Below are positions 23,947-48,010 of a stretch of DNA of 64,000 nucleotides, one piece after another (within the stretch, counting starts at the first letter, position 1; every line of letters starts with the position of its first letter). This DNA comes from a virus (Duplodnaviria > Caudoviricetes). The translations under genes and the position numbers were made by a program. The DNA lies in IMG/VR virus record IMGVR_UViG_3300037067_017580, positions 1 through 64,000 of that record, one strand, 5' to 3'. The notes beneath the pieces were generated by a model. The model saw nothing but the letters and a program-made list of their open reading frames with translations. It ran no database searches and was not told the origin of the DNA.

Positions 23947-24984
23947 ATGAAAAATAAAACAATTTTACTTACCGGGGCTTCTGGAATGCTCGGTTCATCC
24001 ATAAAAGAAGAGCTTGCCAGCCGTGGCTATAAAAATGTTCTAACCCCGACTTCCAAAGAACTTGATTTAATGTCACACTATCTCACATCTAAGTATGTTA
24101 TACAAAATAATCCAGAAATTATTATACACTGTGCAGCAAAAGTGGGCGGGATCGTTAATAATATTACCAACGCCGATGATTTTTATAATATAAATTTTAC
24201 AATGCAAAACAATATAATTAAGGCTTCTTATGCGCAAAGAGTAAAAGAATTCTACTTTATGTCTAGTTCGTGCTGTTACCCTGTGGATTGCTCCCAACCT
24301 ATGAAAGAACAAGACATCTACGAAGGAGAACCAGAACCCACAAACGCTAAATACGCCATAGCAAAGCGCAAAGGGATGATTCTACTTGAAGATTTGACAA
24401 AACTAAGCGAGATTATAAATTTTAAGGCTTTAAATATCTGTTTATGTAATCTTTTTGGCAAAGAAAAAGAATTTGACCCCGCGAAGTGCCACGTAATTCC
24501 AGCACTAATTAAAAAACTATATGACGCAAAAACAAATAATCTTCCAGGTTTAGATGTTTTAGGGACGGGAAACGCCGAAAGAGAGTTTTTATATGTTGAA
24601 GATGCCGCTAGAATTATTGTAGATATTATTGAAAAGAGGATTATAGATAAAGAAATATACATAAATGTAGGGCGCGGGCAGGCAATTTCGATAAAACAAT
24701 TAGTGTTTCTTCTCAAAGAAATTGTGGGATATCAGGGAGAAATAAATTTTACTGGTAAAACCGAAGGAATTAAGCAAAAACTTCTTGACATTAGCCGACT
24801 ATTATCGTATAATATAAAATTAGATAATGCAACGATGGATGAAAATATGTATATGAGCTATTATCTTAAAAAAACATATGAAAACTTTTTAGTGAAGACA
24901 AAATTTTCCTTTCCTGGAATGAAAAAAGGAATAGTAAATATTATTGGAGCGCGTTCTGGTGTAGGGAAATCTTATTATCGGTAA
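23947..24984 (+). CDS. fcl: GDP-L-fucose synthase / GDP-colitose synthase (Fcl/ColC-type SDR)
   Basis: TGASGMLG, AAKVGGI, SSCCYP, YAIAK, NLFG, HVIPALI, REFLYVED. Confidence 0.88.
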   Translation: MKNKTILLTGASGMLGSSIKEELASRGYKNVLTPTSKELDLMSHYLTSKYVIQNNPEIIIHCAAKVGGIVNNITNADDFYNINFTMQNNIIKASYAQRVKEFYFMSSSCCYPVDCSQPMKEQDIYEGEPEPTNAKYAIAKRKGMILLEDLTKLSEIINFKALNICLCNLFGKEKEFDPAKCHVIPALIKKLYDAKTNNLPGLDVLGTGNAEREFLYVEDAARIIVDIIEKRIIDKEIYINVGRGQAISIKQLVFLLKEIVGYQGEINFTGKTEGIKQKLLDISRLLSYNIKLDNATMDENMYMSYYLKKTYENFLVKTKFSFPGMKKGIVNIIGARSGVGKSYYR

Positions 24985-24990
24985 AAAAAA

Positions 24991-25545
24991 ATGAAAACAA
25001 AAGCAAAATTAGAAATTTTAAGCGCGTTATTATCATTCCCAACTATAAGCCAAAAAGATTGGGAAAGTGATATTTTTCATTCAGAAGTTAAAAAAGGGGA
25101 TTTAGTTTCTATAAATTGTGCCAGCCCTTCAAAATGGTATTTATCATGGGTAATAGACATCAATGATAATAATTGTTATCCTAAATATTTACTTGAAAGT
25201 ATTGAAGACGGAGAATCTTGTTGGTGGGATAATATAGGGATAAATATATATGATAGAGAAAAAGTAAACAGAAATCCAAAATGGAAATGGGATGATAAAC
25301 AATTTGGCTTTAACGAAAAGTGGAATAAGGTATGTTATAAAATAAACGATGCATATATTATGCTGCCTGAGTTACCAATATTTAATCAAGATGGTTCAGT
25401 AATATTAAATGTTAGAATTAGATTTTATTTAAATAATTTTAATAATCCCCAAGTTTTTAAAAATTGGAAAAATCTATCTACAAAAGAAATAGACTTATAT
25501 TATAAAGAAAGTTTAAAAAAATATGAATCTACAAAAGTTAGTTGA
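24991..25545 (+). CDS. Hypothetical protein
   Basis: 184 aa ORF. Confidence 0.7.
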   Translation: MKTKAKLEILSALLSFPTISQKDWESDIFHSEVKKGDLVSINCASPSKWYLSWVIDINDNNCYPKYLLESIEDGESCWWDNIGINIYDREKVNRNPKWKWDDKQFGFNEKWNKVCYKINDAYIMLPELPIFNQDGSVILNVRIRFYLNNFNNPQVFKNWKNLSTKEIDLYYKESLKKYESTKVS

Positions 25546-26407
25546 TAAAAAACTTATATTTCCGCCTAATTGGCTCCCATCAAATGTCCATTATTTAGCC
25601 ATAACTGGAAGCAAAGCATATGGTTGCCATCAAAATAATAAATCCGATGATGATATCGTAGGATGGTGTTTTCCTCGAAAAGAAACTGTTTTCCCTCATT
25701 TAAATGGATATATTCATGGATTTGGCAATCCTCCAGAAAGCTTTGAGGTTTGGCAACAGCACCATGTAAAAGACGACCAAAAACAATATGATTTCACCAT
25801 ATATAGTATTATTAAATTTGTTCAACTTTGTATGAAGAATAATGCAAATATTTTAGACGTTTTATTTGTGCCGCAACAATGTGTTATCCATTGCACCCAA
25901 ACGGCACAAATACTTAGAGATAGAAGAAAAGAATTTTTACACAAAGGAGCATATTCTTCTTTTCGCGGATATTCGTTTTCACAAATGAATAAAATGGCAA
26001 CAAAAAATCCAAAAGAAGGTTCTAATAGATATGAAGATATAAAAATAAACAAATGGGACAGAAAGTATGGTTACCATCTAGTAAGACTTCTCTTAGAATG
26101 TGAACAAATATTAGCTACTGGCGACTTAGACCTTCAACGAGATAGTGAAACATATAAAGCTATTCGGCGGGGCGACTGGACTGAACAACAAGTAAGAGAT
26201 TTCTTTGCTCAAAAAGAGAAATATCTTGAAGAACTTTATCAAAAAAGCACTCTTCCACATCGGCCAAATGAAGACAAAATAAAAGAAATACTTCTACAGG
26301 TGTTAGAACAGCATTATGGAAGCTTAGAAAAAGCAATAACTTTGCCAGAAAAAGAAAGTATTTATTTAAAACAAATTGGTGACGCAATAAGAAAACTTGG
26401 GTATTAA
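25523..26407 (+). CDS. Predicted nucleotidyltransferase (Pol-beta superfamily, YcgL-like)
   Basis: ITGSKAYG..SDDDIVG; HLVRLL..C.QIL..G. Confidence 0.8.
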   Translation: MNLQKLVDKKLIFPPNWLPSNVHYLAITGSKAYGCHQNNKSDDDIVGWCFPRKETVFPHLNGYIHGFGNPPESFEVWQQHHVKDDQKQYDFTIYSIIKFVQLCMKNNANILDVLFVPQQCVIHCTQTAQILRDRRKEFLHKGAYSSFRGYSFSQMNKMATKNPKEGSNRYEDIKINKWDRKYGYHLVRLLLECEQILATGDLDLQRDSETYKAIRRGDWTEQQVRDFFAQKEKYLEELYQKSTLPHRPNEDKIKEILLQVLEQHYGSLEKAITLPEKESIYLKQIGDAIRKLGY

Positions 26408-26426
26408 CAATTATAGGAGAAAACAA

Positions 26427-26687
26427 ATGGATGATAGTCACGAATCAGATTATCAAAGCTACGCCGATTGGTACGATAATGGCCCCGGAAGTGAAAAAGC
26501 CATCAGGGAATCTAAAAAAAGTTCAGCCGAGTACCATAAAAATAATCCAACTTTTATTTTATCAAAAGATCAGCTTGATTATTACAAAAAAATAGAAAAA
26601 GAACACAAAAAACTTAAAAGAAAAATTAAAATTAACAGAAAACAGAGAAAAAATAAGAAAAACTATTTTAAATTAGGAACAAAATAA
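26427..26687 (+). CDS. Hypothetical protein with basic C-terminus
   Basis: AGGAG RBS. Confidence 0.6.
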   Translation: MDDSHESDYQSYADWYDNGPGSEKAIRESKKSSAEYHKNNPTFILSKDQLDYYKKIEKEHKKLKRKIKINRKQRKNKKNYFKLGTK

Positions 26688-26690
26688 CCT

Positions 26691-26951
26691 ATGATTTATA
26701 AAATATTATTATGGGCTAATAAAGAAAGATGTGATTTAGATGGATACCAACAACAAATAGAGGTACTTCTTGAGGAAAAACATATATATTCGTGGTATTC
26801 TGAAAAATTTGAAAATAATCCACCGGAAATAAATATTTTTTTTAATATTCCTGTAATGAAAAAAGAAGTTAGTGCTGCTTCTCCTCATCTAGCAGTAGTA
26901 AAATTTCTAAGATGGTATAGCAATGGATTATCAGAAAGTTATTTGGATTAA
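26691..26951 (+). CDS. Hypothetical protein
   Basis: Operon packing. Confidence 0.6.
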   Translation: MIYKILLWANKERCDLDGYQQQIEVLLEEKHIYSWYSEKFENNPPEINIFFNIPVMKKEVSAASPHLAVVKFLRWYSNGLSESYLD

Positions 26952-26972
26952 ATTACAAAAAGGGAATTAAAG

Positions 26973-27245
26973 ATGATTAATTGGATTAAAACAATAGAAA
27001 AATTACCAAGTGCGGGAATATCAGTATTAGTTTATGATATTGATAAGAATGATATATTTATATGCAAAATAGTTAATTATGGAAGTAGCCCAACAAATAA
27101 TTATATGTGGTTTTTATTTACAAAACAAGAACAAGCTTCTCTTGAACATTATCCTCTTTGGACAAAAATTCCAGATAATCCCCAAGAAATAATAGAACTT
27201 AAAAAATATCTTCAAGAAAAAGACATTTCTTTAAAAATAGAATAA
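26973..27245 (+). CDS. DUF551-like phage protein
   Basis: WIKTIEKLP...VLVY...W..IP. Confidence 0.6.
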   Translation: MINWIKTIEKLPSAGISVLVYDIDKNDIFICKIVNYGSSPTNNYMWFLFTKQEQASLEHYPLWTKIPDNPQEIIELKKYLQEKDISLKIE

Positions 27246-27256
27246 GGAGAACACTT

Positions 27257-27421
27257 TTGAGCGGCGAAATACAAATAAAGTGCAATCAGTGCGGTAAAGA
27301 ATTTGAAACAACAAAATATGGCGTAAAAGAACAAAAAATAGAATGTATTAATTGTGGGTCAGAAGATGTTGAGACTATAGAAAGTAAAAAGAAAAAGGTA
27401 AATAAAAATGAGTTTATTTGA
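27257..27421 (+). CDS. FmdB-like Zn-ribbon protein
   Basis: AAGGAG plus TTG; CNQCGKEFE...CINCGSEDV; not in the track. Confidence 0.65.
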   Translation: MSGEIQIKCNQCGKEFETTKYGVKEQKIECINCGSEDVETIESKKKKVNKNEFI

Positions 27422-27514
27422 TATATTGACCTGTATTAATTTTACATGTTTAATTATTATACTTATTTGTAGTATTATTAATATAATAAACATCACTAAC
27501 CGGAGTAAAAAATA

Positions 27515-27901
27515 ATGCCTACGACATGTCCAGTTTGTGGCCGCGAAATTAATGTAACTGAACACATATGTTCTTGTGGCGCTCATGTTCGCACAATTCG
27601 AGCCGAAGCTGTAGTTAGAATGTTAGAAGGGGCTAATGCTGGTTGGAAAAAATTAGCAGAAATACAAGACACAAAAATTGAAAAATTAGAACAATTAGTG
27701 ACTAAATATCGAATGGCGTTGGAACTTATTATAAAACATCAGGCGCTATTCGCAGACGAAATCGGAGACGCATCTGGAGTCACTATGATTGCAAAAGAAG
27801 CACTTGAAAAATGTGGAAAAAATGAGATTCGCGCTTGTTCTTATGGAATGCTGTCTGACGCCGATAGGTTAATTCTTGCTAAACAAGCCCTTAAAACTTA
27901 A
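27515..27901 (+). CDS. Zn-ribbon plus coiled-coil hypothetical protein
   Basis: CPVCG..CSCG; GGAG RBS; last + strand gene. Confidence 0.7.
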   Translation: MPTTCPVCGREINVTEHICSCGAHVRTIRAEAVVRMLEGANAGWKKLAEIQDTKIEKLEQLVTKYRMALELIIKHQALFADEIGDASGVTMIAKEALEKCGKNEIRACSYGMLSDADRLILAKQALKT

Positions 27902-29160
27902 TTGACGCTTAAAGACCCATTCCATACCTCAAAAGAATGGGTTTTCCTCTCGCTTTCTTTGTATAAAACAACAAATGTCATAACATCCCATGTGACAAAT
28001 TTGTTTTTATCTTCATCAAACTTAGTCTTGGTGTGGACTCTTCTCCATGTCCCGGTGTTAAAATACATTAAATTTTTATTATTTATTACATTTAATGGTT
28101 CAATAACCGGATAATGAGTATGTCCATAAACAACGTGGCTGATTCCCTCTCTCAGTAATTCGCTTTCTGTTATGGCATTTTTATAATATTCATCAGAGCT
28201 TTTTATTATCTTTTCTAAAGATATTCTGTTTATTACCTGAAGTGGCAAAACAGTTGATATTCCTAGCCCGATTTGAAGAGCATCTACTGCATCCCACCTT
28301 AAAAATCTATCATGGTCAGAAACAAATGGTATTCTCAAAAATTTTTTAGCTAAATCATTCCAAATATCTTTAACATTATTTAATATTTTTTTACCATAAG
28401 GATTACAAACTCCGAGTATCCAATCAGGAATATTTGACATCGGGCGGACATTATCTATCTCGCAGAGGTCGTTTATTAACTTTGAAGGGGCGTCAGATAA
28501 TTCGTCCCATACTCGAAAAGGAAAACTATTTAAAAGGTCAATTACAATAGCGTCTCCAAGAGAGGATTTCTTCCTATCTCCTTCATAGTTAAACTGGTCA
28601 TAAATATCTCCATGCCGGGCAATAACTCCATGCTCAAAATCAATCATATTGTCTTTAAAGACAATGCTTGAACAGTCTTTATCCAACAATAAAAAGTTTT
28701 CTGCCATTTTTCTGCACATTAATGTTTTATTTACCAACCAATCATGATTACCAATCAAATAAGAAAATCTTATATTTATACCAACTAACAAAAATTTTTG
28801 TTTAAGTTGCTCAAGAATATTATGGATTTCATCATTTTTTTGATTTGAGCAAATTTTTCTCATTATCCGTGTAGAATATTCATCAAGTCCATTCCCCTCT
28901 ATATCTTTTTCGCCATCTATATTCCAAGGGCGGACAATCCCTATATTTTTACCATCACTTGCAATATTTTTATTGTTAGTCCAATAACTAGACCGAATTA
29001 TATCAAATATATCACCTAAAAAAACGACTTCCACATCTTTTGCGGAAGCCTTCTTAGCCATTATAAAAAGTTGCTCCGAGAACTTCTCAAAAGCCCCCGG
29101 ATTTATGGTGTTCCCGCATGTCCCATCAGTCAGGTGTATATCTGATAAAAAAACAAGCAT
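27898..29160 (-). CDS. Calcineurin-like metallophosphoesterase (420 aa)
   Basis: SDIHL, LGDIFD, GNHD, HGD, GHTH. Confidence 0.88.
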   Translation of the reverse strand: MLVFLSDIHLTDGTCGNTINPGAFEKFSEQLFIMAKKASAKDVEVVFLGDIFDIIRSSYWTNNKNIASDGKNIGIVRPWNIDGEKDIEGNGLDEYSTRIMRKICSNQKNDEIHNILEQLKQKFLLVGINIRFSYLIGNHDWLVNKTLMCRKMAENFLLLDKDCSSIVFKDNMIDFEHGVIARHGDIYDQFNYEGDRKKSSLGDAIVIDLLNSFPFRVWDELSDAPSKLINDLCEIDNVRPMSNIPDWILGVCNPYGKKILNNVKDIWNDLAKKFLRIPFVSDHDRFLRWDAVDALQIGLGISTVLPLQVINRISLEKIIKSSDEYYKNAITESELLREGISHVVYGHTHYPVIEPLNVINNKNLMYFNTGTWRRVHTKTKFDEDKNKFVTWDVMTFVVLYKESERKTHSFEVWNGSLSVN

Positions 29161-29161
29161 T

Positions 29162-29674: not shown

Positions 29675-29889
29675 TATAATCCTTTTGTTAAAACATCAAG
29701 CCTTTGTTTTGAAAAACTTTGTTCAAAATCAGGAAAATATTTACTATCCTCAACTCCTTCGATATATGCTTGCTTAACAAGTTCTCTCATTGTTTTTGTA
29801 TATTCGACAAAAGAATCTTGTAATCTGTCTAGCTCTCTCCCTGCTTTAAAATTATTTATCAATTGCGTCCTTATCTTTTCAGCCAGCAT
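29674..29889 (-). CDS. Hypothetical protein
   Basis: Operon packing. Confidence 0.6.
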   Translation of the reverse strand: MLAEKIRTQLINNFKAGRELDRLQDSFVEYTKTMRELVKQAYIEGVEDSKYFPDFEQSFSKQRLDVLTKGL

Positions 29890-31561: not shown

Positions 31562-31851
31562 TTTTTAATTCCTTGATTTAAATAGCTATCTGAATCCACA
31601 ATATAAAAATTAGGATCAGGAATCTTTTTAGCTCTTTTTTCTCTAATTATTTTGCGTGCCTGTATGCGCTTATTTTTTCTTTTATCTTGTTTTTTAGAAA
31701 AAGAACCATTAATAAGCATAGAATTATTTATAATAATATCGTATCCAGAAAAATAAGAAGACAAACTACAAGACTCGCCAATCAATCCTTCTGCTCTTGC
31801 TTGGGTAATTAATTTATTTATTGTTTGAGAATGCCCAACTATTTGTTTCAT
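31549..31851 (-). CDS. Hypothetical basic protein
   Basis: ATGA overlap with GT11. Confidence 0.55.
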   Translation of the reverse strand: MKQIVGHSQTINKLITQARAEGLIGESCSLSSYFSGYDIIINNSMLINGSFSKKQDKRKNKRIQARKIIREKRAKKIPDPNFYIVDSDSYLNQGIKKWFG

Positions 31852-32612
31852 ATTTTTATCCACCTTTCAGGGACAATATCTGTTTTAGCCCCATCGGCGT
31901 ACCATTTTCCGGGACAAATAACCACGGCATTTTTATTCTTATTCAGCCATGCCCCCCACCAAGAAAATGTAGAATTTGCTATAATATGAGCGTCACACAT
32001 TGACATTTGTATAACTTCTACATAATCCGGCTTATTTTCTGCAAAGGTAAAGGTATAATTACCAAAATTAAAGTTTTCTTTACACCATTTTACGTCATTA
32101 GAAAAAACAAGAAATGATTTGATGTTTGTTTTTGAATTTACTATTTCTATTGCCTTTTTATAGTATTCCAGAGATAAGCAACCGTGCCGTTTGATATTTA
32201 CCGGACTAAGATAGTCGCCACGGCGGACATGAAGACTGCAACAATGTTGACTTGGCATTATTAATGATCTTTTTACATCTAAATCAAGTCTAAAATCTTC
32301 ATATATTGAGTTTTTGATGTGTTTAAAATAGTTTTCATTTTGAAAATAACCGTAAATTCTTTCTCCGTCTTTGATATTAAAAAACTTATCGTTATACATC
32401 AGCCCGATGTCTTGAAGTCTATTTTTAGGAGTTTCAAACTCTCCTTTATAATCTCTAAGTTTAAAACTGGGCAAACTATATGGATGGAGATAATCTCTTG
32501 AGTTGCTTAAAATAAGAGCCAATTCTGTGTTGTGACTTTGTGCCAAGGCAAGTCCAGCGGCATATTGGAACATTTGGTTGCCAAGCCCGCCACAAATATC
32601 AACATAAATCAT
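31848..32612 (-). CDS. GT11 alpha-1,2-fucosyl(colitosyl)transferase
   Basis: GGLGNQMFQYA, GYFQNE, HVRRGDY, FSND, ANSTFSWWGAWL. Confidence 0.93.
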   Translation of the reverse strand: MIYVDICGGLGNQMFQYAAGLALAQSHNTELALILSNSRDYLHPYSLPSFKLRDYKGEFETPKNRLQDIGLMYNDKFFNIKDGERIYGYFQNENYFKHIKNSIYEDFRLDLDVKRSLIMPSQHCCSLHVRRGDYLSPVNIKRHGCLSLEYYKKAIEIVNSKTNIKSFLVFSNDVKWCKENFNFGNYTFTFAENKPDYVEVIQMSMCDAHIIANSTFSWWGAWLNKNKNAVVICPGKWYADGAKTDIVPERWIKI

Positions 32613-33082
32613 TTTAATTCTCCAATATTTTTAATAATTTCTACTATTTCTTCTCTAGTTTCTTTATTTATAAACATTTTATTTTTGTTTTTTTCATAAA
32701 ACTTATCATAATCGGCCACTCCATATCTTGTTTTTTCAGCCGCGCACCAATCTGCCATCATTTCTAGTAAATACTTTTTAGGAATTTTTAATGGAAAAAA
32801 ATCTCCATTATCAAAATACATTATCCAATATTGCCAATGATGTTTATTGTTTCTTTGGTGCTCTAACCAGCCATAATTATCTACTTCTTTTGATTCTTCT
32901 TTCCTTTTATCTTTGGTATAAAAAGTTTTTATGTAATACAAATATTCTGTCAGACTAAATATTTTACTTAAATCATGTAGAATAATATTTATTATTGGAA
33001 CTTTAAAAATAATTCCATAATGAAAAACATAATATTTATGAATAATTAAATATTTTATAAAATTAATAACTTTTTTAAACAT
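32609..33082 (-). CDS. HD-like domain protein (DUF5662-like)
   Basis: HDLSK, NKHHWQYW, EMMADW. Confidence 0.7.
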   Translation of the reverse strand: MFKKVINFIKYLIIHKYYVFHYGIIFKVPIINIILHDLSKIFSLTEYLYYIKTFYTKDKRKEESKEVDNYGWLEHQRNNKHHWQYWIMYFDNGDFFPLKIPKKYLLEMMADWCAAEKTRYGVADYDKFYEKNKNKMFINKETREEIVEIIKNIGELK

Positions 33083-33309
33083 TCTTTTCCCATTTTAATA
33101 TTTCTTCATATTTAAGATTTTTATAATTTTTAAACCAACATGTCATTTTTGCTTGCTCTTATCGAAGGTTTTAACAAATAAAATTCCACTTGATGCCACT
33201 TCTTCTATCTTTTTAGCCGCATCTAGTCCATATCTGTTGTGATCTGAAAGCTCTTTAATTGCAATAAATAGATTTAATAGTTCCTGTGTTTCTTTTGTCA
33301 TTGTCTCTC

Positions 33310-34578
33310 CTAAGAAGATAGTTTGTCGGCTAAATCAATCAATATGTCTCGAAAATAATTAAATATTTCAAAATTAACTCCATTTTTGTCACATCCCCAC
33401 GAAAATGGAGAACATGAAAAATAAAATCCACCATCATTGATTAAATTTGTAGTTGGTAAATTAAACTCTGTTTTGCAATATTTCTTAAAAAATGGCTGTT
33501 TTGTTATATTACCCGAAATAATTGGCCTAGTTTGTATCCCTTTTTCTTCTAATTCTTTTACTGTTTCGTTTTTAACTCTTTCGCTTTTACAAACAATAGG
33601 AAAACAAAACGCAGAAATATCTAATTTTCTATTAATATATTGTTCATAAAATTTAGGATATATAAATTCGGTAAAGCGATATGGAATACTTTGGCTCATA
33701 AACTCATAAAAAACACCATTTCTATCGCTAATTGTCTCGTCTATTATTTTAAGTTGTTCCTGACACAAAAATGCCGTAATCTCTGTTGGGCGAAGGTTAA
33801 ATCCGATATCGAAGAAAGTAAAATCTGTTTCATCTGGATCTATTTTAGCACAAGAACATAATTTGTCAAGTGTTTTTTTATCTAAATCACGCCCCCAGCC
33901 ATTAGAACGGACAATTTTTAACATATCATAGAGCTTTTTATCACCGGTCAGAACCGCCCCGCCCTCAATTGTGCTCATTTGGTGAGAAACATAAAAAGAA
34001 AGTGTACCTGCCAATCCAAAAGTACCTAAATATTTGTTATTATATTTCGCGCCAAGGCTTTCACAGTTATCTTCTAGCAAAATAATATCATTTTCAGAAC
34101 AAAACTTGGCTATTTGTTCGATATCGTTACACACACCAAGCGCATTTGTAATAAAAAGAACCTTGAATCCATATTTATTATAAGCGGCTCTTATGGCACC
34201 AACCCCTATATTAAAACTAAACGGCTCACAATCAATCGCAATAGGGTTCAAATCCATTTGGATAATAGGAGATACATTGGTAGACCAAGTTAGAGAAGAA
34301 AAGCCTACGTTGTCACCAGATTTGATTTTTCCAAGGTTTTTTAACGCCTGTAAGAGCGCAAAATTGGCTGAACCACCACTATTGAACAAAACAGCATGTT
34401 TTGAACCAAACTTTTTAGACAAAGCCGCCTCGCATTTTATACATTCTCCGTTCATGCTTAGACGGTCTGTATTTTTAATAAATTCAGCAAGTTTTTCACG
34501 TAAATCAACTTTGCTTTCAAATGTATCATAGACAAGAGGTATCTTATATTTATTTGACATTTTTATTTTTTTTACCAT
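33310..34578 (-). CDS. colD: PLP-dependent DegT-family enzyme, ColD-like GDP-4-keto-6-deoxymannose 3-dehydratase
   Basis: NSGGSAN, LTWST, EDNCESLGA, SFYVSHQMSTIEGG (His at the usual PLP Lys position), GFNLRP. Confidence 0.75.
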   Translation of the reverse strand: MVKKIKMSNKYKIPLVYDTFESKVDLREKLAEFIKNTDRLSMNGECIKCEAALSKKFGSKHAVLFNSGGSANFALLQALKNLGKIKSGDNVGFSSLTWSTNVSPIIQMDLNPIAIDCEPFSFNIGVGAIRAAYNKYGFKVLFITNALGVCNDIEQIAKFCSENDIILLEDNCESLGAKYNNKYLGTFGLAGTLSFYVSHQMSTIEGGAVLTGDKKLYDMLKIVRSNGWGRDLDKKTLDKLCSCAKIDPDETDFTFFDIGFNLRPTEITAFLCQEQLKIIDETISDRNGVFYEFMSQSIPYRFTEFIYPKFYEQYINRKLDISAFCFPIVCKSERVKNETVKELEEKGIQTRPIISGNITKQPFFKKYCKTEFNLPTTNLINDGGFYFSCSPFSWGCDKNGVNFEIFNYFRDILIDLADKLSS

Positions 34579-34585
34579 ATTTGGT

Positions 34586-35557
34586 TTATTTATTTTTCAT
34601 GCTAACAATAATTTTTTGCAGTGCTTCATCAAGTGAAGTTTCTGGATGATATCCTATTGTGTTTAATAGTCGCGAAACATCTGGATATCTTCTTTCAATG
34701 TCTTTAAAGTTCTCTCCATATGCTTCTTTATAGCCCTTGTAAACGATAGAAGAAGAGCTATTTGTTAAAAGCTTTATTTTTTTAGCCAAGTCGTTTATAG
34801 ATATTTCATTGGTAGATCCAATATTAAAAACTTGTCCATGCGCCTTATTAGAACATGCAAGAAGATATAGGCTATTTGCGACATCTTTGACATATGTAAA
34901 GCAGCGTTTTTGTTCTCCTGTCCCAAAAACAGTAATAGGCTCTCCAGCCAAAGCTTGTTTAATAAGAGTTGGAACAACCATTCCGTATGATCCTGCTTGA
35001 CGCTCTCCAATAGTATTAAATAACCGCACAATCGTTACTGGCAATTTCTTTTCATAAAAATAGGCTAATCCATGAAATTCGTCAAGTAGTTTACTAGCAG
35101 AATAACACCAGCGGCGATAACTAGTGGGGCCAATCATACATATATCGTCTTCTGAAAAAACCAAATTAGGATTCGCTCCATATACTTCGCTGGAAGACGC
35201 AATAATAACTCTTGCTTTGTTTTTCAATGCCGACCGTAAAATGTTCCTAGTCGCTTCGTGATTAACTTCAATGGTATTAATAGGTTCATCCATCACCTTT
35301 TTAACTCCAACGAGGGCGGCAAGATGATAAATTACTTGAATATTTTCTGCTAATTTTTCTACTAAACTATAATCAGTAGCGTCACCCTCTATGAGAGTAA
35401 ATTTGTTGTTAGAAACAAGATGAGAAACATTGTCTCGTTTTCCAGTGGAAAAATTATCTAATGCCGTAACAGAACAATTATTATTAAGAAGCAATTCACA
35501 CAGATGACTACCAATAAATCCAGCACCACCAGTAACTAGAACATTAGTTTTTGCCAT
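34586..35557 (-). CDS. NAD-dependent nucleotide-sugar epimerase/decarboxylase (UXS/ArnA-like SDR)
   Basis: VTGGAGFIG, ASSSEVYG, RWCYSASK, RLFNTIG. Confidence 0.88.
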   Translation of the reverse strand: MAKTNVLVTGGAGFIGSHLCELLLNNNCSVTALDNFSTGKRDNVSHLVSNNKFTLIEGDATDYSLVEKLAENIQVIYHLAALVGVKKVMDEPINTIEVNHEATRNILRSALKNKARVIIASSSEVYGANPNLVFSEDDICMIGPTSYRRWCYSASKLLDEFHGLAYFYEKKLPVTIVRLFNTIGERQAGSYGMVVPTLIKQALAGEPITVFGTGEQKRCFTYVKDVANSLYLLACSNKAHGQVFNIGSTNEISINDLAKKIKLLTNSSSSIVYKGYKEAYGENFKDIERRYPDVSRLLNTIGYHPETSLDEALQKIIVSMKNK

Positions 35558-35575
35558 TATTCTATCCTTTTAAAA

Positions 35576-35815
35576 TTATATTTGTTTGATTTCTTCAATA
35601 AGAATATTAAGATCATTTTTCTTTTTTTCTACCAATAAGTCAAATATCCTGTAATACATAGTATCTTTTTCATCTATATGATAGATATTATTTTCTATTT
35701 CTATATTTAAAAGAGCAAATACAGATCTTTTTTCTTTGATATTAAATATTTGTTTTTCTAATTCTAGTGCTTCAGCAAATAAAGAATGTATTTTTTCAGC
35801 TTTTTCCATATCCAT
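35576..35815 (-). CDS. Hypothetical protein
   Basis: Operon packing. Confidence 0.6.
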   Translation of the reverse strand: MDMEKAEKIHSLFAEALELEKQIFNIKEKRSVFALLNIEIENNIYHIDEKDTMYYRIFDLLVEKKKNDLNILIEEIKQI

Positions 35816-35957
35816 TAGAATTCAACCCCAAATTTAATGCCAACCAAATTATTATCTAATATTAAGTCTGGCTTAACGCATCTATTTTTACCAATAATAC
35901 TACAAGAACTACACAATACCAAAAAAATCATCATTATAATAACCAAACAAAATTTAA

Positions 35958-36428
35958 TCATTTTTTATCCTTATATAATTTATACCAATTTTCAATTTTA
36001 TATTTAATAACAGCATTATTATTTTCAAACATTTCTTCAAATTTTTCTGTATTTGGTGATTTCCCATCAATTTCCATAAGTGCAAAAATAGATTTCCAAA
36101 GTATTTCTAATTTTTCTTCTTTATTTAGTTTATTTTCCCATATAGTATTTATTGATGTGGATCTTCCTGCAACTATCTCCATCATTTTATCTAGTGCTTC
36201 TTGATACCACGGCTGTATTTTTATATAAAAAATACCATTTTGTGAACAAGAACACATATTGTACACATCAAAATAATATTTTTTATTGTAATTAAAATAA
36301 ATAGTTCCATCTTTAAAAACAATAGAAAATTTATCATGTGGCTGAAGAATAAGTTGAGTATCTTTGTCATAAACAATATCTTCTCGGTTACTATATTCTT
36401 CTATCTGTTGAGGAGTAAATTTTAACAT
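35958..36428 (-). CDS. Hypothetical protein
   Basis: Overlaps the GT6 stop. Confidence 0.65.
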   Translation of the reverse strand: MLKFTPQQIEEYSNREDIVYDKDTQLILQPHDKFSIVFKDGTIYFNYNKKYYFDVYNMCSCSQNGIFYIKIQPWYQEALDKMMEIVAGRSTSINTIWENKLNKEEKLEILWKSIFALMEIDGKSPNTEKFEEMFENNNAVIKYKIENWYKLYKDKK

Positions 36429-37144
36429 AATTTCCTTATTTCCTCCGCATTTTTATGAACATGTAATATTCTATTATCCGAATACAATCCATAACGGGCG
36501 AAATCTTTCTCCGGGCAACAATAATTTGACCCCAAAATTCTTGGTTTATGATATACAAAATACCAATTTATTTGAGATTCGTCAAACCATTTTGTGTTAA
36601 TTCCACGCGAATAATCAAATTCTGTTTGTTCTTTAAGAACTTTACACATCTCTAATACTTTTTCAGTTTCCCCACCCCAAAAACAACCCTGATAATAACA
36701 ATCTAATTTTATTTCTTGTGGAATATATGCAGTAGAATTAGGATTTTCTTCAACATCTCCTCTTGGCCCCATAAATTTCTCCCAAGCAGGATGCTTAACC
36801 CCTACAAGTCCGGAACTAGTATCAGGCCAAATATTTGCAAGCGAAAAAGAATCGCATAATAACATGTCGGCATCTATAAAATAAAGATAGTCATATTGAG
36901 AGAAATAGTCATTTTGTGACAGTATGTGCTCAAATTTACAAGCGGAAGATTGCGGCCACGGACGATGGTCTACTTTAAAATATTTTACCCATTCAAATTC
37001 TTTTGTTTTGTCTTCATTGTTGGTAAAAACAATAACATCTGCGCCACTATAAAAATATTTCTTAATAGATTCGGCCAAGTTTTGTGCTAATATAAAATAT
37101 TTGTTTGTGGCAACGGTTACAAAACATACATTATTTTTTGTCAT
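36422..37144 (-). CDS. GT6 (ABO-type alpha-1,3-Gal/GalNAc transferase family) glycosyltransferase
   Basis: VATNKY, WP, FIDAD, HP, STAYI, YYQGCFWGG, WFDESQIN. Confidence 0.85.
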   Translation of the reverse strand: MTKNNVCFVTVATNKYFILAQNLAESIKKYFYSGADVIVFTNNEDKTKEFEWVKYFKVDHRPWPQSSACKFEHILSQNDYFSQYDYLYFIDADMLLCDSFSLANIWPDTSSGLVGVKHPAWEKFMGPRGDVEENPNSTAYIPQEIKLDCYYQGCFWGGETEKVLEMCKVLKEQTEFDYSRGINTKWFDESQINWYFVYHKPRILGSNYCCPEKDFARYGLYSDNRILHVHKNAEEIRKLC

Positions 37145-41581: not shown

Positions 41582-41587
41582 AAATTT

Positions 41588-42209: not shown

Positions 42210-42212
42210 TTC

Positions 42213-42512: not shown

Positions 42513-42527
42513 TTTGTTCTTTCTATT

Positions 42528-42953: not shown

Positions 42954-43210
42954 TATTTATCTCCTTTAAAAAAATTGACAATAGATTGCCAAATTCCGGT
43001 TTTGCTATTGCTTTTAGAAATATCCCTGTCTACTTTTCCATCCAGCATAAGTTCTTCAAGATATTTTGATGCTTCTTTTTTAGAAATTTTATACATGTCT
43101 TCTAAATACTTAGCGGCAAGTTCATGGCTATCAAACTTAGTTCCGTTAATATACCACACAATTTCTTCCCCAATTTCACAATAATCATTTTTGTTTTTAT
43201 AGTTTTTCAT
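42953..43210 (-). CDS. Hypothetical protein
   Basis: Operon packing. Confidence 0.6.
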   Translation of the reverse strand: MKNYKNKNDYCEIGEEIVWYINGTKFDSHELAAKYLEDMYKISKKEASKYLEELMLDGKVDRDISKSNSKTGIWQSIVNFFKGDK

Positions 43211-43503
43211 TAGTTTTTCCTTGCCTTTTTGTTTAAAATAACCGCATTATCGTAGTGTTTTTTGTCTCTTGTGTTAAGATATAAAGAATATTCCATAAAA
43301 CAATCTTTAGATACTGTTTCTAATTTTGAATTTATTTTTCCTGTTCTGAATGCAGCTTCTCTTGGATTATAAAGTTTTAAAGACTCAAAAAGACAAAAAT
43401 AAAATTCTTTATCATTATTCTTAACATAAGCAGAACAAGCAAAATCTTTTCTGTCTGTTATCTTCCCTTGAGAATCATAATAAATTTCTACTTTTTTATC
43501 CAT
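43210..43503 (-). CDS. Hypothetical protein
   Basis: AAGGAG RBS. Confidence 0.7.
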   Translation of the reverse strand: MDKKVEIYYDSQGKITDRKDFACSAYVKNNDKEFYFCLFESLKLYNPREAAFRTGKINSKLETVSKDCFMEYSLYLNTRDKKHYDNAVILNKKARKN

Positions 43504-43513
43504 TTTTTACTCC

Positions 43514-43771
43514 TTATTTATATAGACAAATTTCATAAACTTCTTTTTGAACATCGTCTTCTAATTCTAAAATAATTTGATCTAAATTACCTACTATACC
43601 ATCTGCTACTCCTAAAAATGGCTTATCATAAATTATAACTGACAAAGACTTGTCTCCACAAAAGGGACATTTAATTATTATGTCTCTTTTAAACGGCTCC
43701 TCTTGTTTTTTAACATAGAGAATTGCAAGTTCTTTTCCACATCCGGCACATTTGATTATTGTTTTTTCCAT
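43514..43771 (-). CDS. Zn-ribbon protein
   Basis: CAGCG...CPFCG. Confidence 0.7.
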   Translation of the reverse strand: MEKTIIKCAGCGKELAILYVKKQEEPFKRDIIIKCPFCGDKSLSVIIYDKPFLGVADGIVGNLDQIILELEDDVQKEVYEICLYK

Positions 43772-43772
43772 T

Positions 43773-44012
43773 TCACCAGTTTGCCTTTTTATCATTTGAA
43801 AACATTCCGCAATTACTAATTTTGCACACAATAATACCTGTTACAGCAAGAAAAACTACTAATGTTGAAAAATATGGGATAAAAGAAACTACAATTAAAC
43901 AATTTCTGTCTCCTATTGTCCATTCGGTCTGACCACAAACACATTTATTACTAATTTTTGTTAATATATAGCAACTCGGAATTGACAATAGATAAATAAT
44001 TAAAAATATCAT
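43773..44012 (-). CDS. Small membrane protein
   Basis: Two hydrophobic segments; AGGAG RBS. Confidence 0.65.
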   Translation of the reverse strand: MIFLIIYLLSIPSCYILTKISNKCVCGQTEWTIGDRNCLIVVSFIPYFSTLVVFLAVTGIIVCKISNCGMFSNDKKANW

Positions 44013-44020
44013 ATTTTCTC

Positions 44021-44926
44021 CTAAATTTTCTCATTAATAACAATTGCCCCACCAAGAGAAACAACCCTATCTGTAAAAACTTGTTCTTTATCGGTATTAA
44101 ACATTGAGCCTTTCCAAATTCCATATTTAGCATCAATATTATCCGCAAAATGGAGCAACTGCGCAGTAAAGATAGCTGGAACTACAGGAGAACCCCAATC
44201 TTTTTGCCCGTGATGTGATAAAATGCAATGTTTAAGCATAAGAACATCTTTTGGTGTTAAGTCATATTTATTTCTACAAATATAATTTTCAACAGTTTCA
44301 GCCCCAATATAAAGATGTTCCAAGGATATCCCAAGTAGTGTATTAGATATTGTCCCATCTTTTTCAAATGAATATACTTTAATTTTACCAATATCATGTA
44401 AAACAGCCGCCGCAAAGAGTAATTCTACATCAATATTATCAGAATAAAGTTCAGAAAACTTTTCACATGTCTTTAAAACATAGTAGGTGTGACAAAGCAA
44501 GCCACCCCTAAAATCATGGTGAACTGCTTTCGCTCCCGGAGATTCTAAAAATCCAACCTCATTGTCTTTTATAATATCAAAAACTAGCTTAGAAAAACGC
44601 CCCATTTTGCCAATCATGTGTTTAATATATGAATAACATTCTTGTTTATCAAACTTAATTGCTGTGGCGGTTTGCAAATGAGAAAATTCTTTTGATTGCT
44701 TTTCTGATAAAACTTCATAGTCTTTAACAATTAATTGTGTTTTACCATTGTATGATTCTTCATTAAATTGTATGGCGCTAATAATATCATTCTCTTTTAG
44801 TTCAGCAACGATGTCCCAAATCTTTCCATCTTTTTTAGAACCATCCTCAACGTTGGCAATAAAAGAATAATATTGCTTTCCAGATTTTGTTTTTGCTTTT
44901 TTAAGAGATTTAACGCAAATAATCAT
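44021..44926 (-). CDS. yhaM: OB-fold plus HD-domain 3'-5' exonuclease (YhaM/Cbf1-like)
   Basis: N-terminal OB (GKIWD, YNG..QL); PGA..VHH...GGLLCH; LHDIGK; HCILSHHG..WGSPV.P; LHFAD. Confidence 0.85.
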   Translation of the reverse strand: MIICVKSLKKAKTKSGKQYYSFIANVEDGSKKDGKIWDIVAELKENDIISAIQFNEESYNGKTQLIVKDYEVLSEKQSKEFSHLQTATAIKFDKQECYSYIKHMIGKMGRFSKLVFDIIKDNEVGFLESPGAKAVHHDFRGGLLCHTYYVLKTCEKFSELYSDNIDVELLFAAAVLHDIGKIKVYSFEKDGTISNTLLGISLEHLYIGAETVENYICRNKYDLTPKDVLMLKHCILSHHGQKDWGSPVVPAIFTAQLLHFADNIDAKYGIWKGSMFNTDKEQVFTDRVVSLGGAIVINEKI

Positions 44927-45105
44927 TATTTTGCACTTTCCTGAACAAGTTTTACAATTTTATAATATTTATAACTTATGTATCCGTTTTTCATCATACT
45001 TCTTGCCTCTTTTCTGGTGACAAAAATATGGGCAAAGTTACAGTGTATCCCTGAAATCTCTCCATTTTTTTTATAAATTATTGCCCACCAGTGTTTATTT
45101 TTCAT
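44926..45105 (-). CDS. Small hypothetical protein, WA...F.TRKEAR family
   Basis: 59 aa MKNKHWWAIIYKK..IFVTRKEAR..KIVKL; missing from the track. Confidence 0.7.
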   Translation of the reverse strand: MKNKHWWAIIYKKNGEISGIHCNFAHIFVTRKEARSMMKNGYISYKYYKIVKLVQESAK

Positions 45106-45833
45106 TTTACCTCTTTTCCCTTAAGGTATTCTTTAATCTCTGTCTGCGACTTAATAATTTCTCTAGCTGATTCAAAATTTAACAAAGAAATATCGTCTAC
45201 TGGCTCTTTTTTAATCGCAACTAGAACATCTTTTAGTGTTGTTTTGTTATCAGAGATAAATTTTTCAATAATTCTTTTCTGTAGATCTGTGGTTGGTTGA
45301 CTATTTGTAACAACCTCTTCCTCTTCTGAGTCCATGACTTCTTCTGCGGCAACGATATTAAGATTAAGAGCCTTACGATAAATTCTTGCTTCTGCGCGTG
45401 TTACAGCACTAGAAACACTATATTTACCGAAGTCCCATCCAGAATTATAATATGGGCGGCAATCTGCGGCGTCTGAAAATGTTCTACGTAAATCACCCTG
45501 TAAAAATGTAATAGTCATGGTAGCAATAGCTCCAGACATTTTCCCTTCTTCAAATATCGGGCTAGTTTCTATGTGTTGATCTATAATTGTGCCAATTTTG
45601 TCTTGAGCAACACGACGCAATCCATTAATTTTTACATATTCGACACCGTTTTTCGTTGCTTTTTCATTATCATAGAACAAACACAGATCAGAAGGAGCAT
45701 CTTTTTGCTCTTCCATTGTTATCTCTTCAAATTTTACCCTTACTTCGTCATCAGACATTTTTGCAACGTCTTCTTGATTAGCCCCGTGGATTTCTGATAA
45801 CTCTTTTCTCATCGTTGACGCCCTTTTAGCCAT
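45102..45833 (-). CDS. Conserved phage protein, possible ssDNA-annealing protein
   Basis: VKINGLRRVA, AVTRAEARIYRKALNL..VAAEE; adjacent to an exonuclease; function inferred from context. Confidence 0.45.
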   Translation of the reverse strand: MAKRASTMRKELSEIHGANQEDVAKMSDDEVRVKFEEITMEEQKDAPSDLCLFYDNEKATKNGVEYVKINGLRRVAQDKIGTIIDQHIETSPIFEEGKMSGAIATMTITFLQGDLRRTFSDAADCRPYYNSGWDFGKYSVSSAVTRAEARIYRKALNLNIVAAEEVMDSEEEEVVTNSQPTTDLQKRIIEKFISDNKTTLKDVLVAIKKEPVDDISLLNFESAREIIKSQTEIKEYLKGKEVK

Positions 45834-45890
45834 TTTTTATTGCCCTTTTTACAAACCCTAAACAATGTCTTGCCGCAACTTGATATACTT

Positions 45891-45918
45891 ATTATATATT
45901 AAAAATCCAATTTGTCAA
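45891..45918 (-). promoter_or_regulatory. Sigma70-type promoter, 16-bp spacer
   Basis: Minus strand TTGACA-N16-TATAAT, intergenic. Confidence 0.8.
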
Positions 45919-45926
45919 GATAAAAA

Positions 45927-46325
45927 TCAACATTTTTCAAAAATTTTTGCTACTTCTTCTATTTTTGTTGTGGGAGCGAGAGTTATAACCTCTTGAAAAC
46001 TATCCCTATTCGGTTCTATTGTATCAACGATAAGAATTTTTTTATGGGCTAACCCTTCTCTGGCGGCATCACAAGAAGAAGAGCAAGAAGAAAAAGAAAC
46101 CGCTACAGCATTTCTATTTTTCATAGCTGTAGAAATAGAACAATTAACAAACATCGTTCTAAAAATATCACAAATTGGTTCGTCGCAGGCAATAACAACT
46201 GGATTTTTAAGTATTTTTATCAATTCATAGAGCCAAGTTGACCGCTGTGCTTTGTCTTTTTTAAAATTATCAATATAAAAAATTAGTGTTTTATATTGGT
46301 TTTCTGGTATTTTTTCTATACTCAT
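45927..46325 (-). CDS. Hypothetical protein
   Basis: ATGA-type overlap with gmd. Confidence 0.65.
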   Translation of the reverse strand: MSIEKIPENQYKTLIFYIDNFKKDKAQRSTWLYELIKILKNPVVIACDEPICDIFRTMFVNCSISTAMKNRNAVAVSFSSCSSSCDAAREGLAHKKILIVDTIEPNRDSFQEVITLAPTTKIEEVAKIFEKC

Positions 46326-47311
46326 TTATTTTCCAAATCATAATTTACCATTGTTCTTGCCAACTTTTCAACATCAAAAAAGCTTGTCCAGCCTAACTTA
46401 GTCCTAATTTTAGAAGAATCTCCACAAAGATACGTTAAATCATTTGGCCGCATAAACGTTTCCGTATTATGACGAATATGCCTATTAAAACAAAAATAAT
46501 TTTGTCTAAGTTTTTCATTTCCATATTTAAAACAAAGATCTATAAATTCTTTTCCGGTTGTAGATTTTTCTGTTGAAACAACATAATCTTCAAGAATATC
46601 TGATTCTCCAACTAAAATTAAAGCGTTTGCATAATCTCCAGCATAGCCCCAGTCTCTTACAAAATTAAGATTTCCAAGCTCTATAAACTCTTTATTACCT
46701 TGAATGATATCCCTCATTCCAAGAGTAATTTTACGAGTAAAAAAGTTTTCTCCACGCTTTTCCGATTCATAATTAAACATAATAACAGAAGCCGCATTCA
46801 TTCCATAGGAATCTCTATATACACGAACAGCATTATGCCCAACGGTTTTTGCTAACCCATATGGACTACGAGGAAGAAGTTGGGAATTCTCATTGATTTT
46901 GCCACCATCAATATATCCAAACATCTCCGAACTAGAACATTGAACAAATTTACAGTCTTTTTTGTGCTTTCTTATTGCTTCAAGACAGTTTACTACTCCA
47001 ACTCCAGTGACGTTAATTGTCGAAACAGGAGTGACCCATGATTCTTGAACATATGACATAGCTGCACAATTAAAAAACACATCTGGGCTATATTTTTTTA
47101 CAACTTCTTCAATAGATGTTACGTCGCAAAGATCAAATGTCTCAAAAATAAAATTCTTATTCTCAAAAAAATGTTTTCTATCTTTAAGTTTTTCACTAAT
47201 ATTTGTGGTGTGACGGCACAGACCAATAACTTTATAATCTTTATCAAGAAGTTTATTTACCAAAAAGTATGCCATTTGTCCAGTAAGACCAGTAACTATC
47301 GCTGTTTTCAA
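46322..47311 (-). CDS. gmd: GDP-mannose 4,6-dehydratase
   Basis: TGLTGQ, AAMSYV..SW, SSSEMFG, PRSPYGLAK, FNYES..RGE.F.TRKI, LGNL...RDWGYAGDY. Confidence 0.92.
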   Translation of the reverse strand: MKTAIVTGLTGQMAYFLVNKLLDKDYKVIGLCRHTTNISEKLKDRKHFFENKNFIFETFDLCDVTSIEEVVKKYSPDVFFNCAAMSYVQESWVTPVSTINVTGVGVVNCLEAIRKHKKDCKFVQCSSSEMFGYIDGGKINENSQLLPRSPYGLAKTVGHNAVRVYRDSYGMNAASVIMFNYESEKRGENFFTRKITLGMRDIIQGNKEFIELGNLNFVRDWGYAGDYANALILVGESDILEDYVVSTEKSTTGKEFIDLCFKYGNEKLRQNYFCFNRHIRHNTETFMRPNDLTYLCGDSSKIRTKLGWTSFFDVEKLARTMVNYDLENK

Positions 47312-48010
47312 TTATTTTCTCCTTAAACTTTCTAACATCTTATAATTATTTTGAACATCTTTATGTTTAGGCCCAGAAGTAGAGGTCTCTGGATGATTAA
47401 AATGCCAGAGTGGGCCAGAAATTCTTTCAATCTGATATCCATTTTGTTTCGCCCTTAAAACTCTTTCATTATCTTCAAATCCCCAGCCTCTAAATTCTTC
47501 GTTCTCTAATCCTATCTTTTCATATCTTGTGCGGTCAAAAACAAAGCAACCACCAACAGAATCACTTATTGCGCAAGTATAGAATAAACTATTAAAATCT
47601 CCATTTTTTATCGCTGCTTCGTCAAAAATATCTACATTTTGAAATCTTCCATCATATGGAAAACAAAACATACAATCTTCGTTATCTCCTATTTTTTTAA
47701 CAGCCTGATTATAGCCGAAAGGAAAAGTTAAAACATCTACGTCTTGGTTGACAATAATATCTGTTTCTGCCATTTTTGTCATCAGATTAAGAATTTTAGT
47801 TCTATGAAAACAATCTTCCATTGGTTCAAATATATATCTAGCGCCGATTTGTTCTACTGTATCTTTATTTTGTGATTCTTTGTCGTGTTCACACACAATT
47901 ATGTTAGAGCAAATATTTTTAAATATAAAATCTGTAACATGTACTAAATTTCTTAATCTTTCTTCGCAGTCTTTTCTAAATGGAATAATAAAAGTAGCAT
48001 TATTGATCAT
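47312..48010 (-). CDS. GT-A fold galactosyltransferase-like protein (GT7 C-terminal/GT2)
   Basis: IIPFR...RLRNL, QDVDVL, VGGCFVF, NEEFRGWGFEDNE. Confidence 0.82.
   Translation of the reverse strand: MINNATFIIPFRKDCEERLRNLVHVTDFIFKNICSNIIVCEHDKESQNKDTVEQIGARYIFEPMEDCFHRTKILNLMTKMAETDIIVNQDVDVLTFPFGYNQAVKKIGDNEDCMFCFPYDGRFQNVDIFDEAAIKNGDFNSLFYTCAISDSVGGCFVFDRTRYEKIGLENEEFRGWGFEDNERVLRAKQNGYQIERISGPLWHFNHPETSTSGPKHKDVQNNYKMLESLRRK

Follow-up and report, generated by a model that had tools for sequence, protein, structure and literature searches.

A dispersed set of phage genes that may encode a colitose version of the cyanophage-type GT11/GT6 glycan module

Bacterial synthesis of GDP-L-colitose proceeds by way of Gmd, ColD and an Fcl-type epimerase/reductase, a pathway established for Escherichia coli O55. 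The carriage by phages of Gmd, Fcl and the glycosyltransferases (GTs) of families 11 and 6 is a 20-year-old idea, and the combination is a known kind of phage 'lipopolysaccharide (LPS)' cluster. That of the cyanophage P-SSM2 has been known since 2005 from the work of Sullivan et al. (PMC1079782); its order (PSSM2_257-271) is Gmd, Fcl, a short-chain dehydrogenase/reductase (SDR), two GT2 genes, a dioxygenase, GT1, a hypothetical gene, GT11, two hypothetical genes, GT6, a further hypothetical gene, a second SDR and GT25. Similar clusters are present in cyanophages such as S-SCSM1 (PMC9602691), and in the classical reading they alter the surface glycan of the host during infection (PMC1079782, PMC9602691). 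The DNA considered here, referred to as the window, covers positions 1 to 64,000 of a 76,859-bp virus record from IMG/VR (IMGVR_UViG_3300037067_017580) with a CheckV completeness of ~45%; its GC content is ~31%. The content of a cyanophage-type 'LPS' cluster (Gmd, an Fcl-type enzyme, GT11 and GT6 plus more GTs and SDRs) is complete in the window, but dispersed, and it is joined by a ColD-type gene. On balance, comparison of the sequences makes it probable that a glycan module recurrent among phages is present here in dispersed form and in a colitose version, with GT11 and GT6 providing the capping activities.

An initial annotation of the window named five genes of the set, and all five are real and lie where it placed them (Pfam E-values 1e-84 to 2.5e-10). 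Gmd, a GDP-mannose 4,6-dehydratase of 329 aa, is encoded at 46322-47311 (GDP_Man_Dehyd, PF16363, 1e-84; TIGR01472, 255 bits), and a 345-aa Fcl/ColC-type GDP-4-keto-(3,)6-deoxymannose epimerase/4-reductase at 23947-24984 (Pfam Epimerase, 4e-45). A 254-aa GT11, of the alpha-1,2-fucosyl/colitosyl-transferase type, is at 31848-32612 (Glyco_transf_11, PF01531, 3e-31); a 240-aa GT6, a retaining alpha-1,3-glycosyltransferase consisting of a minimal catalytic domain of the DXD type, is at 36422-37144 (Glyco_transf_6, PF03414, 3e-22); and a 232-aa inverting GT-A glycosyltransferase with a GT7-C-like half is at 47312-48010 (Glyco_transf_7C, PF02709, 2.5e-10). Both strands are used, as had been said, with the Fcl/ColC gene on the plus strand and the remaining four on the minus strand. 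Correct as far as it went, the gene list omitted a 422-aa ColD-type GDP-4-keto-6-deoxy-D-mannose 3-dehydratase, an enzyme of the DegT fold dependent on pyridoxal or pyridoxamine phosphate (33310-34578), a 323-aa extended SDR resembling UDP-glucuronate decarboxylase (UXS/ArnA; 34586-35557) and five GT4 genes, all of them on the minus strand. The genes had been described as scattered over 24 kb, which holds for their overall spread but not for their finer arrangement, as GT11, ColD, the SDR and GT6 share, with four small open reading frames (ORFs), one 5.3-kb minus-strand block (31848-37144). Within it ColD is separated from GT11 by 0.7 kb and from GT6 by 1.8 kb. The Gmd and GT-A genes adjoin without a gap (47311/47312), the TTG start of Gmd meeting the stop of the upstream GT. 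The absence of membrane anchors was also correctly seen: none of the Gmd, Fcl/ColC, GT11, GT6 and GT-A proteins shows a membrane segment in a hydropathy scan, and the glycan enzymes of the window all look soluble.

In the pathway proposed, host GDP-mannose would be converted by Gmd to GDP-4-keto-6-deoxymannose, ColD would take off the 3-OH, and C5 epimerization and C4 reduction by the Fcl/ColC protein would then yield GDP-L-colitose, with some GDP-fucose being made if ColD were bypassed. GT11 would add colitose (or fucose) in alpha-1,2 linkage to a beta-galactoside, possibly one supplied by the GT-A enzyme, and GT6, with a divalent metal, would add an alpha-1,3 hexose to the same galactose. 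The product, assembled in the cytoplasm of the infected cell, would be the colitose analogue of a blood-group-B/A-type cap.

Because a ColD-type 3-dehydratase is present, GDP-colitose is predicted as a likelier donor than GDP-fucose, or else both are made, and the phage may be able to use either or both. The initial annotation had hedged with 'fcl/colC' and 'deoxyhexose'; the H-type fucose that it also put forward is, with ColD present, less likely than colitose. The best matches of the ColD-type protein in the PDB are four E. coli ColD entries (2gms, 6e-54), followed at a distance by CDP-sugar E1 dehydrase (3e-35) and perosamine synthase (3e-20). The residue aligned with His188 of E. coli ColD, where aminotransferases have the Schiff-base Lys, is likewise His, and this His is invariant in an alignment of 15 ColD homologues that are 43-48% identical. 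Gmd retains its Rossmann motif, GLTGQ, and the catalytic SSSE and YGLAK. In the Fcl/ColC protein, whose best PDB match is E. coli GDP-fucose synthetase (2e-47), the equivalents of S107, C109, Y136, K140 and H179 are all kept (SSCCYP, YAIAK, HVIPAL), and its score against the NCBIfam Fcl model is 238 bits, under the 500-bit cut-off. A FastTree analysis of 122 sequences places it and O55 ColC, both on long branches, away from the Fcl clade with local support of 97-99%. Members of the Fcl clade are the E. coli enzyme, those of P-SSM2 and S-SCSM1, and 12 of the 13 copies without linkage to ColD. The C-terminus of the window protein (24880-24984) also carries a tail of ~35 residues beyond the usual end of the family, closing with a Walker-A-like GARSGVGKS.

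The GT11 protein has the motifs GGLGNQMFQYA, HVRRGDY (128-134) and NSTFSWWGAWL, and shares 31% identity with WbgN of E. coli O55, which transfers colitose in alpha-1,2 linkage and can also use GDP-Fuc as donor (PMC12723683). In a GT11 tree the two fall in a group of 53 sequences, 50 of them ColD-linked, a proportion confounded by locus sampling. A sequence search of the PDB found no relative of solved structure for the GT11.

The closest PDB matches of the GT6 are BoGT6a (1.5e-17) and the human ABO transferases (~1e-16). It has DAD at residues 91-93 (FIDADM) as its metal motif, where vertebrate GT6 enzymes have DXD and the Bacteroides enzymes NXN, the catalytic Glu in WFDES (Glu303 of GTA) and a donor loop reading YYQGCFWGG, and it ends soon after the conserved Lys231, with neither a BHB tail nor a stem region. 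Clade 1 of GT6, minimal and of the DXD type, comprises the enzyme of cyanophage P-SSM2, marine metagenome sequences and Parachlamydia PaGT6, the last of which requires metal and a 2'-fucosylated acceptor (PMC3516806). By its sequence the window GT6 is a member of this clade. At the positions termed A1, A2 and A7, fucose-accepting GT6 enzymes have His, a small residue and a small residue (Ala/Ile), while alpha3GT, which rejects fucose, has Gln, Trp and Trp (PMC3516806); the window protein has His118 at A1 and Ala120 at A2, in agreement with the fucose-accepting group at these two positions. Against the NCBIfam model 'family 6 glucosyltransferase' it scores 137 bits, under the 250-bit cut-off.

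The GT-A homologues form a family of ~250-aa metagenomic proteins, some labelled capsule glycosyltransferases, and two viral loci (L065 and L081) have such a gene directly beside GT11. Because of this, and because the gene abuts Gmd in the window, it probably belongs to the same glycan. Its product has the motifs DVD and GWGFEDNE, and an AlphaFold 2 model (mean predicted local distance difference test score, pLDDT, 89.5) has the GT-A fold. The second SDR has its best PDB match in human UXS1, the UDP-glucuronate decarboxylase (1e-52; next family 1e-37), and shows the motifs ASSSEVYG and YSASK. The cyanophage SDRs linked to GT6 lack the catalytic Glu of its Ser-Glu motif and look like 4-epimerases. 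That it is their orthologue was considered and is doubtful, as its UXS-type Ser-Glu is missing in them.

Contigs encoding a relative of ColD number at least 597 in bacteria and at least 428 in IMG/VR, and neighbors within 8-10 kb were counted for 80 bacterial and 80 viral loci. Around the bacterial genes Fcl-like neighbors number 62, Gmd 29 and GT11 27; around the viral genes Gmd numbers 57, Fcl-like 54 and GT11 24. The Fcl-like gene lies no more than 1.5 kb from ColD in 126 of 159 cases, and where a ColD-bearing genome has a single Fcl-like gene (17 of 27), that gene is within the same distance in 15 of the 17. The context of ColD homologues thus supports a working module. For GT6, partners were counted within 10 kb in 80 viral loci, many of which are near-duplicates, and the counts are lower bounds as many of the contigs are short: an SDR in 69, GT11 in 65, an Fcl-like gene in 38, Gmd in 31 and ColD in 12. 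The co-occurrence that the initial annotation set as a check is accordingly seen at the level of families in the linkage of GT11 to GT6, though no close relative of the window was found, and its idea of one pathway gains from the presence of the gene families as a single operon in P-SSM2 and in the cultured Synechococcus phage ACG-2014f. Its further point, that an operon-based search would miss the pathway, does not stand for other phages, in which the genes do form an operon. Several IMG/VR contigs have the set in compact form as well; on L071, GT11, ColC, GT6, ColD and Gmd are inside 6 kb, and in an uncultured megaphage of 642 kb (LR756502.1, 420000-465000; L167) ColC, ColD, GT6 and four GT11-like genes are inside 28 kb. 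The GT6 domain of the megaphage is within a 534-aa ORF, probably a fusion, and a second DegT-family gene is present. No recurring non-enzyme partner that could be a carrier or target protein was seen near the module; the sugar genes alone recur.

A number of observations weigh against a colitose pathway ending in a GT6-capped glycan. The Fcl/ColC protein is at a near-equal distance from the two reference enzymes (36% identity to E. coli O55 ColC, 34% to K-12 Fcl), and its placement in the tree depends on long branches; it is a candidate ColC that may instead be an Fcl. The GT11 tree is confounded because of how the loci were collected. Only one of 47 ColD-bearing viral records has GT6. That GT6 regularly partners the colitose genes is thus rejected; the linkage runs in the opposite direction, GT6 usually being accompanied by GT11. 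GT6 would accordingly be an optional capping enzyme added to modules that contain GT11, and the colitose genes a variant of the deoxyhexose supply. The GT-A protein had been called a GT7-like galactosyltransferase. That name cannot be upheld, as PF02709, the 7C half, is the one match (40 bits, in the C-terminal half of the protein), the match to beta4GalT7 in a PDB sequence search is weak (8e-5), and the Foldseek order for the model is the GT2 chondroitin polymerase K4CP, the GT27 enzyme ppGalNAc-T2, SpsA and then beta4GalT1. The enzyme is, by fold and motifs, of a generic inverting DXD type whose sugar cannot be named.

The GT6 itself departs from the enzymes that act on H acceptors: A7 is His228, neither Ala/Ile nor Trp, the equivalent of Thr245/Thr134 is Asp, and donor positions 266/268 are Gln/Cys, matching no A (Leu/Gly), B (Met/Ala) or BoGT6a (Ala/Gly) type. 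Because of these three features both acceptor and donor may differ from those of the H-acceptor enzymes. The initial annotation's A/B-type enzyme on H acceptors is in keeping with the minimal DXD clade shared with PaGT6 and with the A1 and A2 residues, but the Gln/Cys pair fits neither A nor B. As Gln and Cys have larger side chains, N-acetylgalactosamine would be disfavored, and galactose or glucose would be the more likely donor sugar. The pair is common to ACG-2014f and some IMG/VR GT6s; Ala/Gly, as in BoGT6a, is what the majority of phage GT6s have. The subtype loop Y-[YW]-Q-G-[CS]-x-W-G-G is present in L223, L226, L234, L243, L248, L249, L253, L254, L256 and L166 as well as in the window. 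It marks a minority of phage GT6s, most of which read YYAGGFNGG, and shows no tracking with the presence of ColD; in both members that were aligned (window and ACG-2014f) A7 is His.

Equally to be kept in view is what the contig lacks. No multi-pass membrane protein that could be a flippase or polymerase was found (no protein has more than three predicted membrane segments), there is no PF02397 (Bac_transf) match for an initiating phosphoglycosyltransferase, and ManB/ManC were not found on this contig of ~45% of the genome (no PF00483 NTP_transferase match). A Wzx/Wzy-dependent O-antigen or capsule locus was accordingly rejected, the initiating transferase, flippase, polymerase and GDP-mannose supply genes all being missing from the ~45%-complete contig. 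The target of the glycan is not readable from context either, because so much of the genome is outside the contig and no structural gene is recognized on it. Soluble bacterial GT11 and GT6 enzymes work at the cytoplasmic face on lipid-linked intermediates. The missing membrane anchors therefore do not tell host-glycan remodelling from virion glycosylation. A host lipid-linked surface-glycan intermediate, exported by the host machinery, is tentatively the foremost candidate for the acceptor, phage virion proteins come close behind it, also tentatively, and other acceptors have the small remainder. The more particular proposal that Col-alpha1,2-[hexose-alpha1,3]-Gal, made with a GT6 subtype (Q-G-C, A7 His) of new specificity, is shown on the virion and not on host LPS is unlikely.

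Much the same genes could serve fucose. Gmd and Fcl would then give GDP-L-fucose, GT11 would form the H-type Fuc-alpha1,2-Gal, GT6 would cap it, and the ColD-like protein would serve another sugar or a side branch. The bit scores of the Fcl-like protein (180 against E. coli Fcl, 169 against ColC) point that way, as do the P-SSM2 and S-SCSM1 modules, which are without ColD, the lack of any Prochlorococcus phage record among the ColD matches, the 19 GT11s at GT6 loci that have Gmd and Fcl nearby and no ColD, and the use of both donors by GT11s of the WbgN type (PMC12723683). Against such a pathway stands an intact, His-type ColD close to both GT11 and GT6, an enzyme whose sole known substrate is the Gmd product, and the window GT11 and Fcl-like protein group with ColD-linked homologues, the characterized O55 enzymes included; it is considered improbable, though deserving of attention. 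Slightly more doubtful is the absence of any single pathway, with independently acquired accessory genes, for instance GT6 with the SDR, the colitose genes and the GT4 row, acting on different glycans. The spread of the genes over 24 kb amid unrelated ORFs with ColC on the opposite strand would suit it, as would the 46 of 47 ColD-bearing viral records in which GT6 is missing, the rarity or absence of the GT4 and GT-A genes in the conserved module, and an SDR that is not the epimerase type accompanying cyanophage GT6. It does not sit well with the GT6-GT11 linkage in 65 of 80 viral loci, with the whole set being one operon in ACG-2014f, P-SSM2 and L071, or with the 5.3-kb block that GT11, ColD, the SDR and GT6 share in the window.

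Two further explanations are far less probable than these. The contig might stem not from a phage but from a bacterial chromosome or some other mobile element, and carry an ordinary surface-polysaccharide locus, in line with the failure to recognize a structural or packaging gene when the larger ORFs of the 77 kb were screened (a scan that did not take in every ORF) and with the missing PHROG match for most ORFs. Its presence in IMG/VR with a CheckV estimate, its large-phage content (split DnaE, DnaB, primase, RecA, SSB, a sigma factor, RNA ligases, phrog_2650 and phrog_7371), the small and densely packed ORFs, and the lack of Wzx, Wzy, initiating-transferase and housekeeping genes make this very improbable. 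Least credible of all is that the sugars decorate phage DNA by base hypermodification, rather than protein or a lipid-linked glycan. The genes do lie in the replication and nucleotide-metabolism arm, by SSB, DnaE, a dNMP-kinase-like protein and an HD protein, and GT4 enzymes have the GT-B fold, as do the T4 DNA glucosyltransferases. A search for a thymidylate-synthase-like hydroxymethylase found none on the contig, however, and the cyanophage version of the module is placed among 'LPS' genes. To our knowledge every characterized GT11 and GT6 acts on sugars, and we know of no GDP-sugar-dependent glycosylation of DNA. A dispersed module making a colitose-containing glycan remains the reading that is preferred here.

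The phage is of the DnaE type and is not a cyanophage. From ~28 kb on, the minus-strand arm holds a replication set of split DnaE, SSB, DnaB, primase, RecA and a PD-(D/E)XK nuclease, along with a sigma-70-like factor, the dNMP-kinase-like protein and the HD protein, while the plus-strand arm has RNA ligases, radical-SAM enzymes, an MT-A70 methyltransferase and TnpB. DNA polymerase III alpha is divided between two ORFs at 60073-63928, one of 782 aa (PHP and core) and one of 501 aa (finger and HHH). Sitting inside the replication module, between the Gmd region, SSB and DnaE, is a row of four GT4 (GT-B) genes (50739-51755, 51954-52865, 52862-53953 and 53953-55617; PF00534 and PF13692 matches), the first two separated by a small 80-aa ORF (51748-51990). 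A fifth GT4 (58978-60063; PF13692, 7e-12) is between SSB and DnaE, and at 25.9 bits narrowly misses the 26-bit cut-off of PF20706 (GT4-conflict). None of these GT4 genes is part of the conserved module of other phages. An RNA-repair-type set at 6886-8007, 14230-15348 and 25523-26407 comprises an Rnl2-like ligase with a PHA02142 OB domain, a T4 Rnl1-like ligase and RlaP. Two DUF5662 paralogues are present, one in the window between GT11 and ColD (32609-33082) and one adjoining DnaE at 63949-64461 of the record (5e-28 and 5e-36). No structural gene was recognized in the screen of the larger ORFs; PHROG gives no function for the flanking ORFs, and the few ORFs that match phage-only PHROG families include those hitting phrog_2650 and phrog_7371. 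Megablast of 20 kb of the window against 50,697 phage records found no near-identical GenBank phage, and a DnaE-seeded scan of IMG/VR yielded no close relative of the phage.

The pathway as such is not new, as the initial annotation would have had it, for the Gmd, Fcl, GT2, GT11 and GT6 cluster of P-SSM2 was published in 2005 (PMC1079782). In the searchable literature no paper was found that links phage genomes with colitose synthesis, and the colitose reading appears to be unreported, though the genes sit in deposited genomes of cultured phages. RefSeq labels the O55 proteins ColD 'DegT family aminotransferase', ColC 'GDP-L-fucose synthase family protein' and WbgN 'alpha-1,2-fucosyltransferase', and because of such labels phage colitose modules go unrecognized, their version being masked with ColD as an 'aminotransferase', ColC as an 'epimerase' or 'fucose synthase' and GT11 as a 'fucosyltransferase'. 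What the window adds is a dispersed example from outside the cyanophages, accompanied by a UXS-like SDR and a GT4 row; the glycan module of the P-SSM2 type is then not limited to T4-like cyanophages, and a colitose version of it would exist too. If the glycan does decorate virions or alter the host surface, it would matter for phage-host recognition, superinfection exclusion and aquatic grazing, and the phage GT6 and GT11 variants are possible enzymes for making deoxy analogues of blood-group glycans.

Of the named systems, P-SSM2 has in common with the window Gmd, Fcl, a GT-A enzyme of the GT2 type, GT11, a minimal GT6 of the DXD type and extra SDRs, all soluble. In contrast to the window it has no ColD, being the fucose version, and has its genes gathered in a single operon of 12 kb; the phage is a T4-like cyanomyovirus, whereas the window phage has a split DnaE, and protein identity between the two is 28-35%. 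In ACG-2014f (NC_026927.1), gp223-gp229 are Gmd, Fcl/ColC, ColD, GT11, a methyltransferase, a small ORF and GT6, and an SDR follows at gp233. It shares with the window Gmd, Fcl/ColC, ColD, GT11, GT6 and SDR, its GT6 having the rare Q-G-C loop and the A7 His, and its ColD is annotated merely as 'aminotransferase'. It differs in that the operon is a compact 8.5 kb with methyltransferase and sulfotransferase genes as well, in that the Fcl-like protein adjacent to ColD groups with cyanophage Fcl, unlike that of the window, and in that its GT6-linked SDR is epimerase-like whereas that of the window is UXS-like. Among gp226-gp235 are the methyltransferase, a galactose-3-O-sulfotransferase-like gene and a 'glucosyltransferase', and the ACG-2014f glycan may be methylated and sulfated.

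For the GT6 on its own, human GTA/GTB, BoGT6a, E. coli O86 WbnI and PaGT6 have the same fold and family, the catalytic Glu, Trp300/Trp189, His233/His122 and a small A2 (PMC3516806), and PaGT6 and the P-SSM2 enzyme also share with it the DXD motif and the minimal domain. Compared with the group of GTA/GTB, BoGT6a, WbnI and PaGT6, the window enzyme has no membrane-binding BHB tail, stem or transmembrane region. The chemistry proposed for the earlier steps has its counterpart in E. coli O55:H7, with Gmd, ColD/WbdK, ColC/WbdJ and the GT11 WbgN from the same families and ColD having the same His in place of Lys, and the product there is Col-alpha1,2-Gal-beta1,3-GlcNAc (GlcNAc, N-acetylglucosamine), the colitose analogue of H type 1. 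Unlike the window, O55 has ManB/ManC and Wzx/Wzy and no GT6, and identities between the proteins are just 31-36%; its glycan is made on undecaprenyl diphosphate and then exported, a route that is no more than possible for the phage. In O55:H7 strain CB9615 (NC_013941.1, 2548001-2568000) the genes are likewise split, with gmd, manC, manB and wbgN on the galF side and colC and colD beyond gnd.

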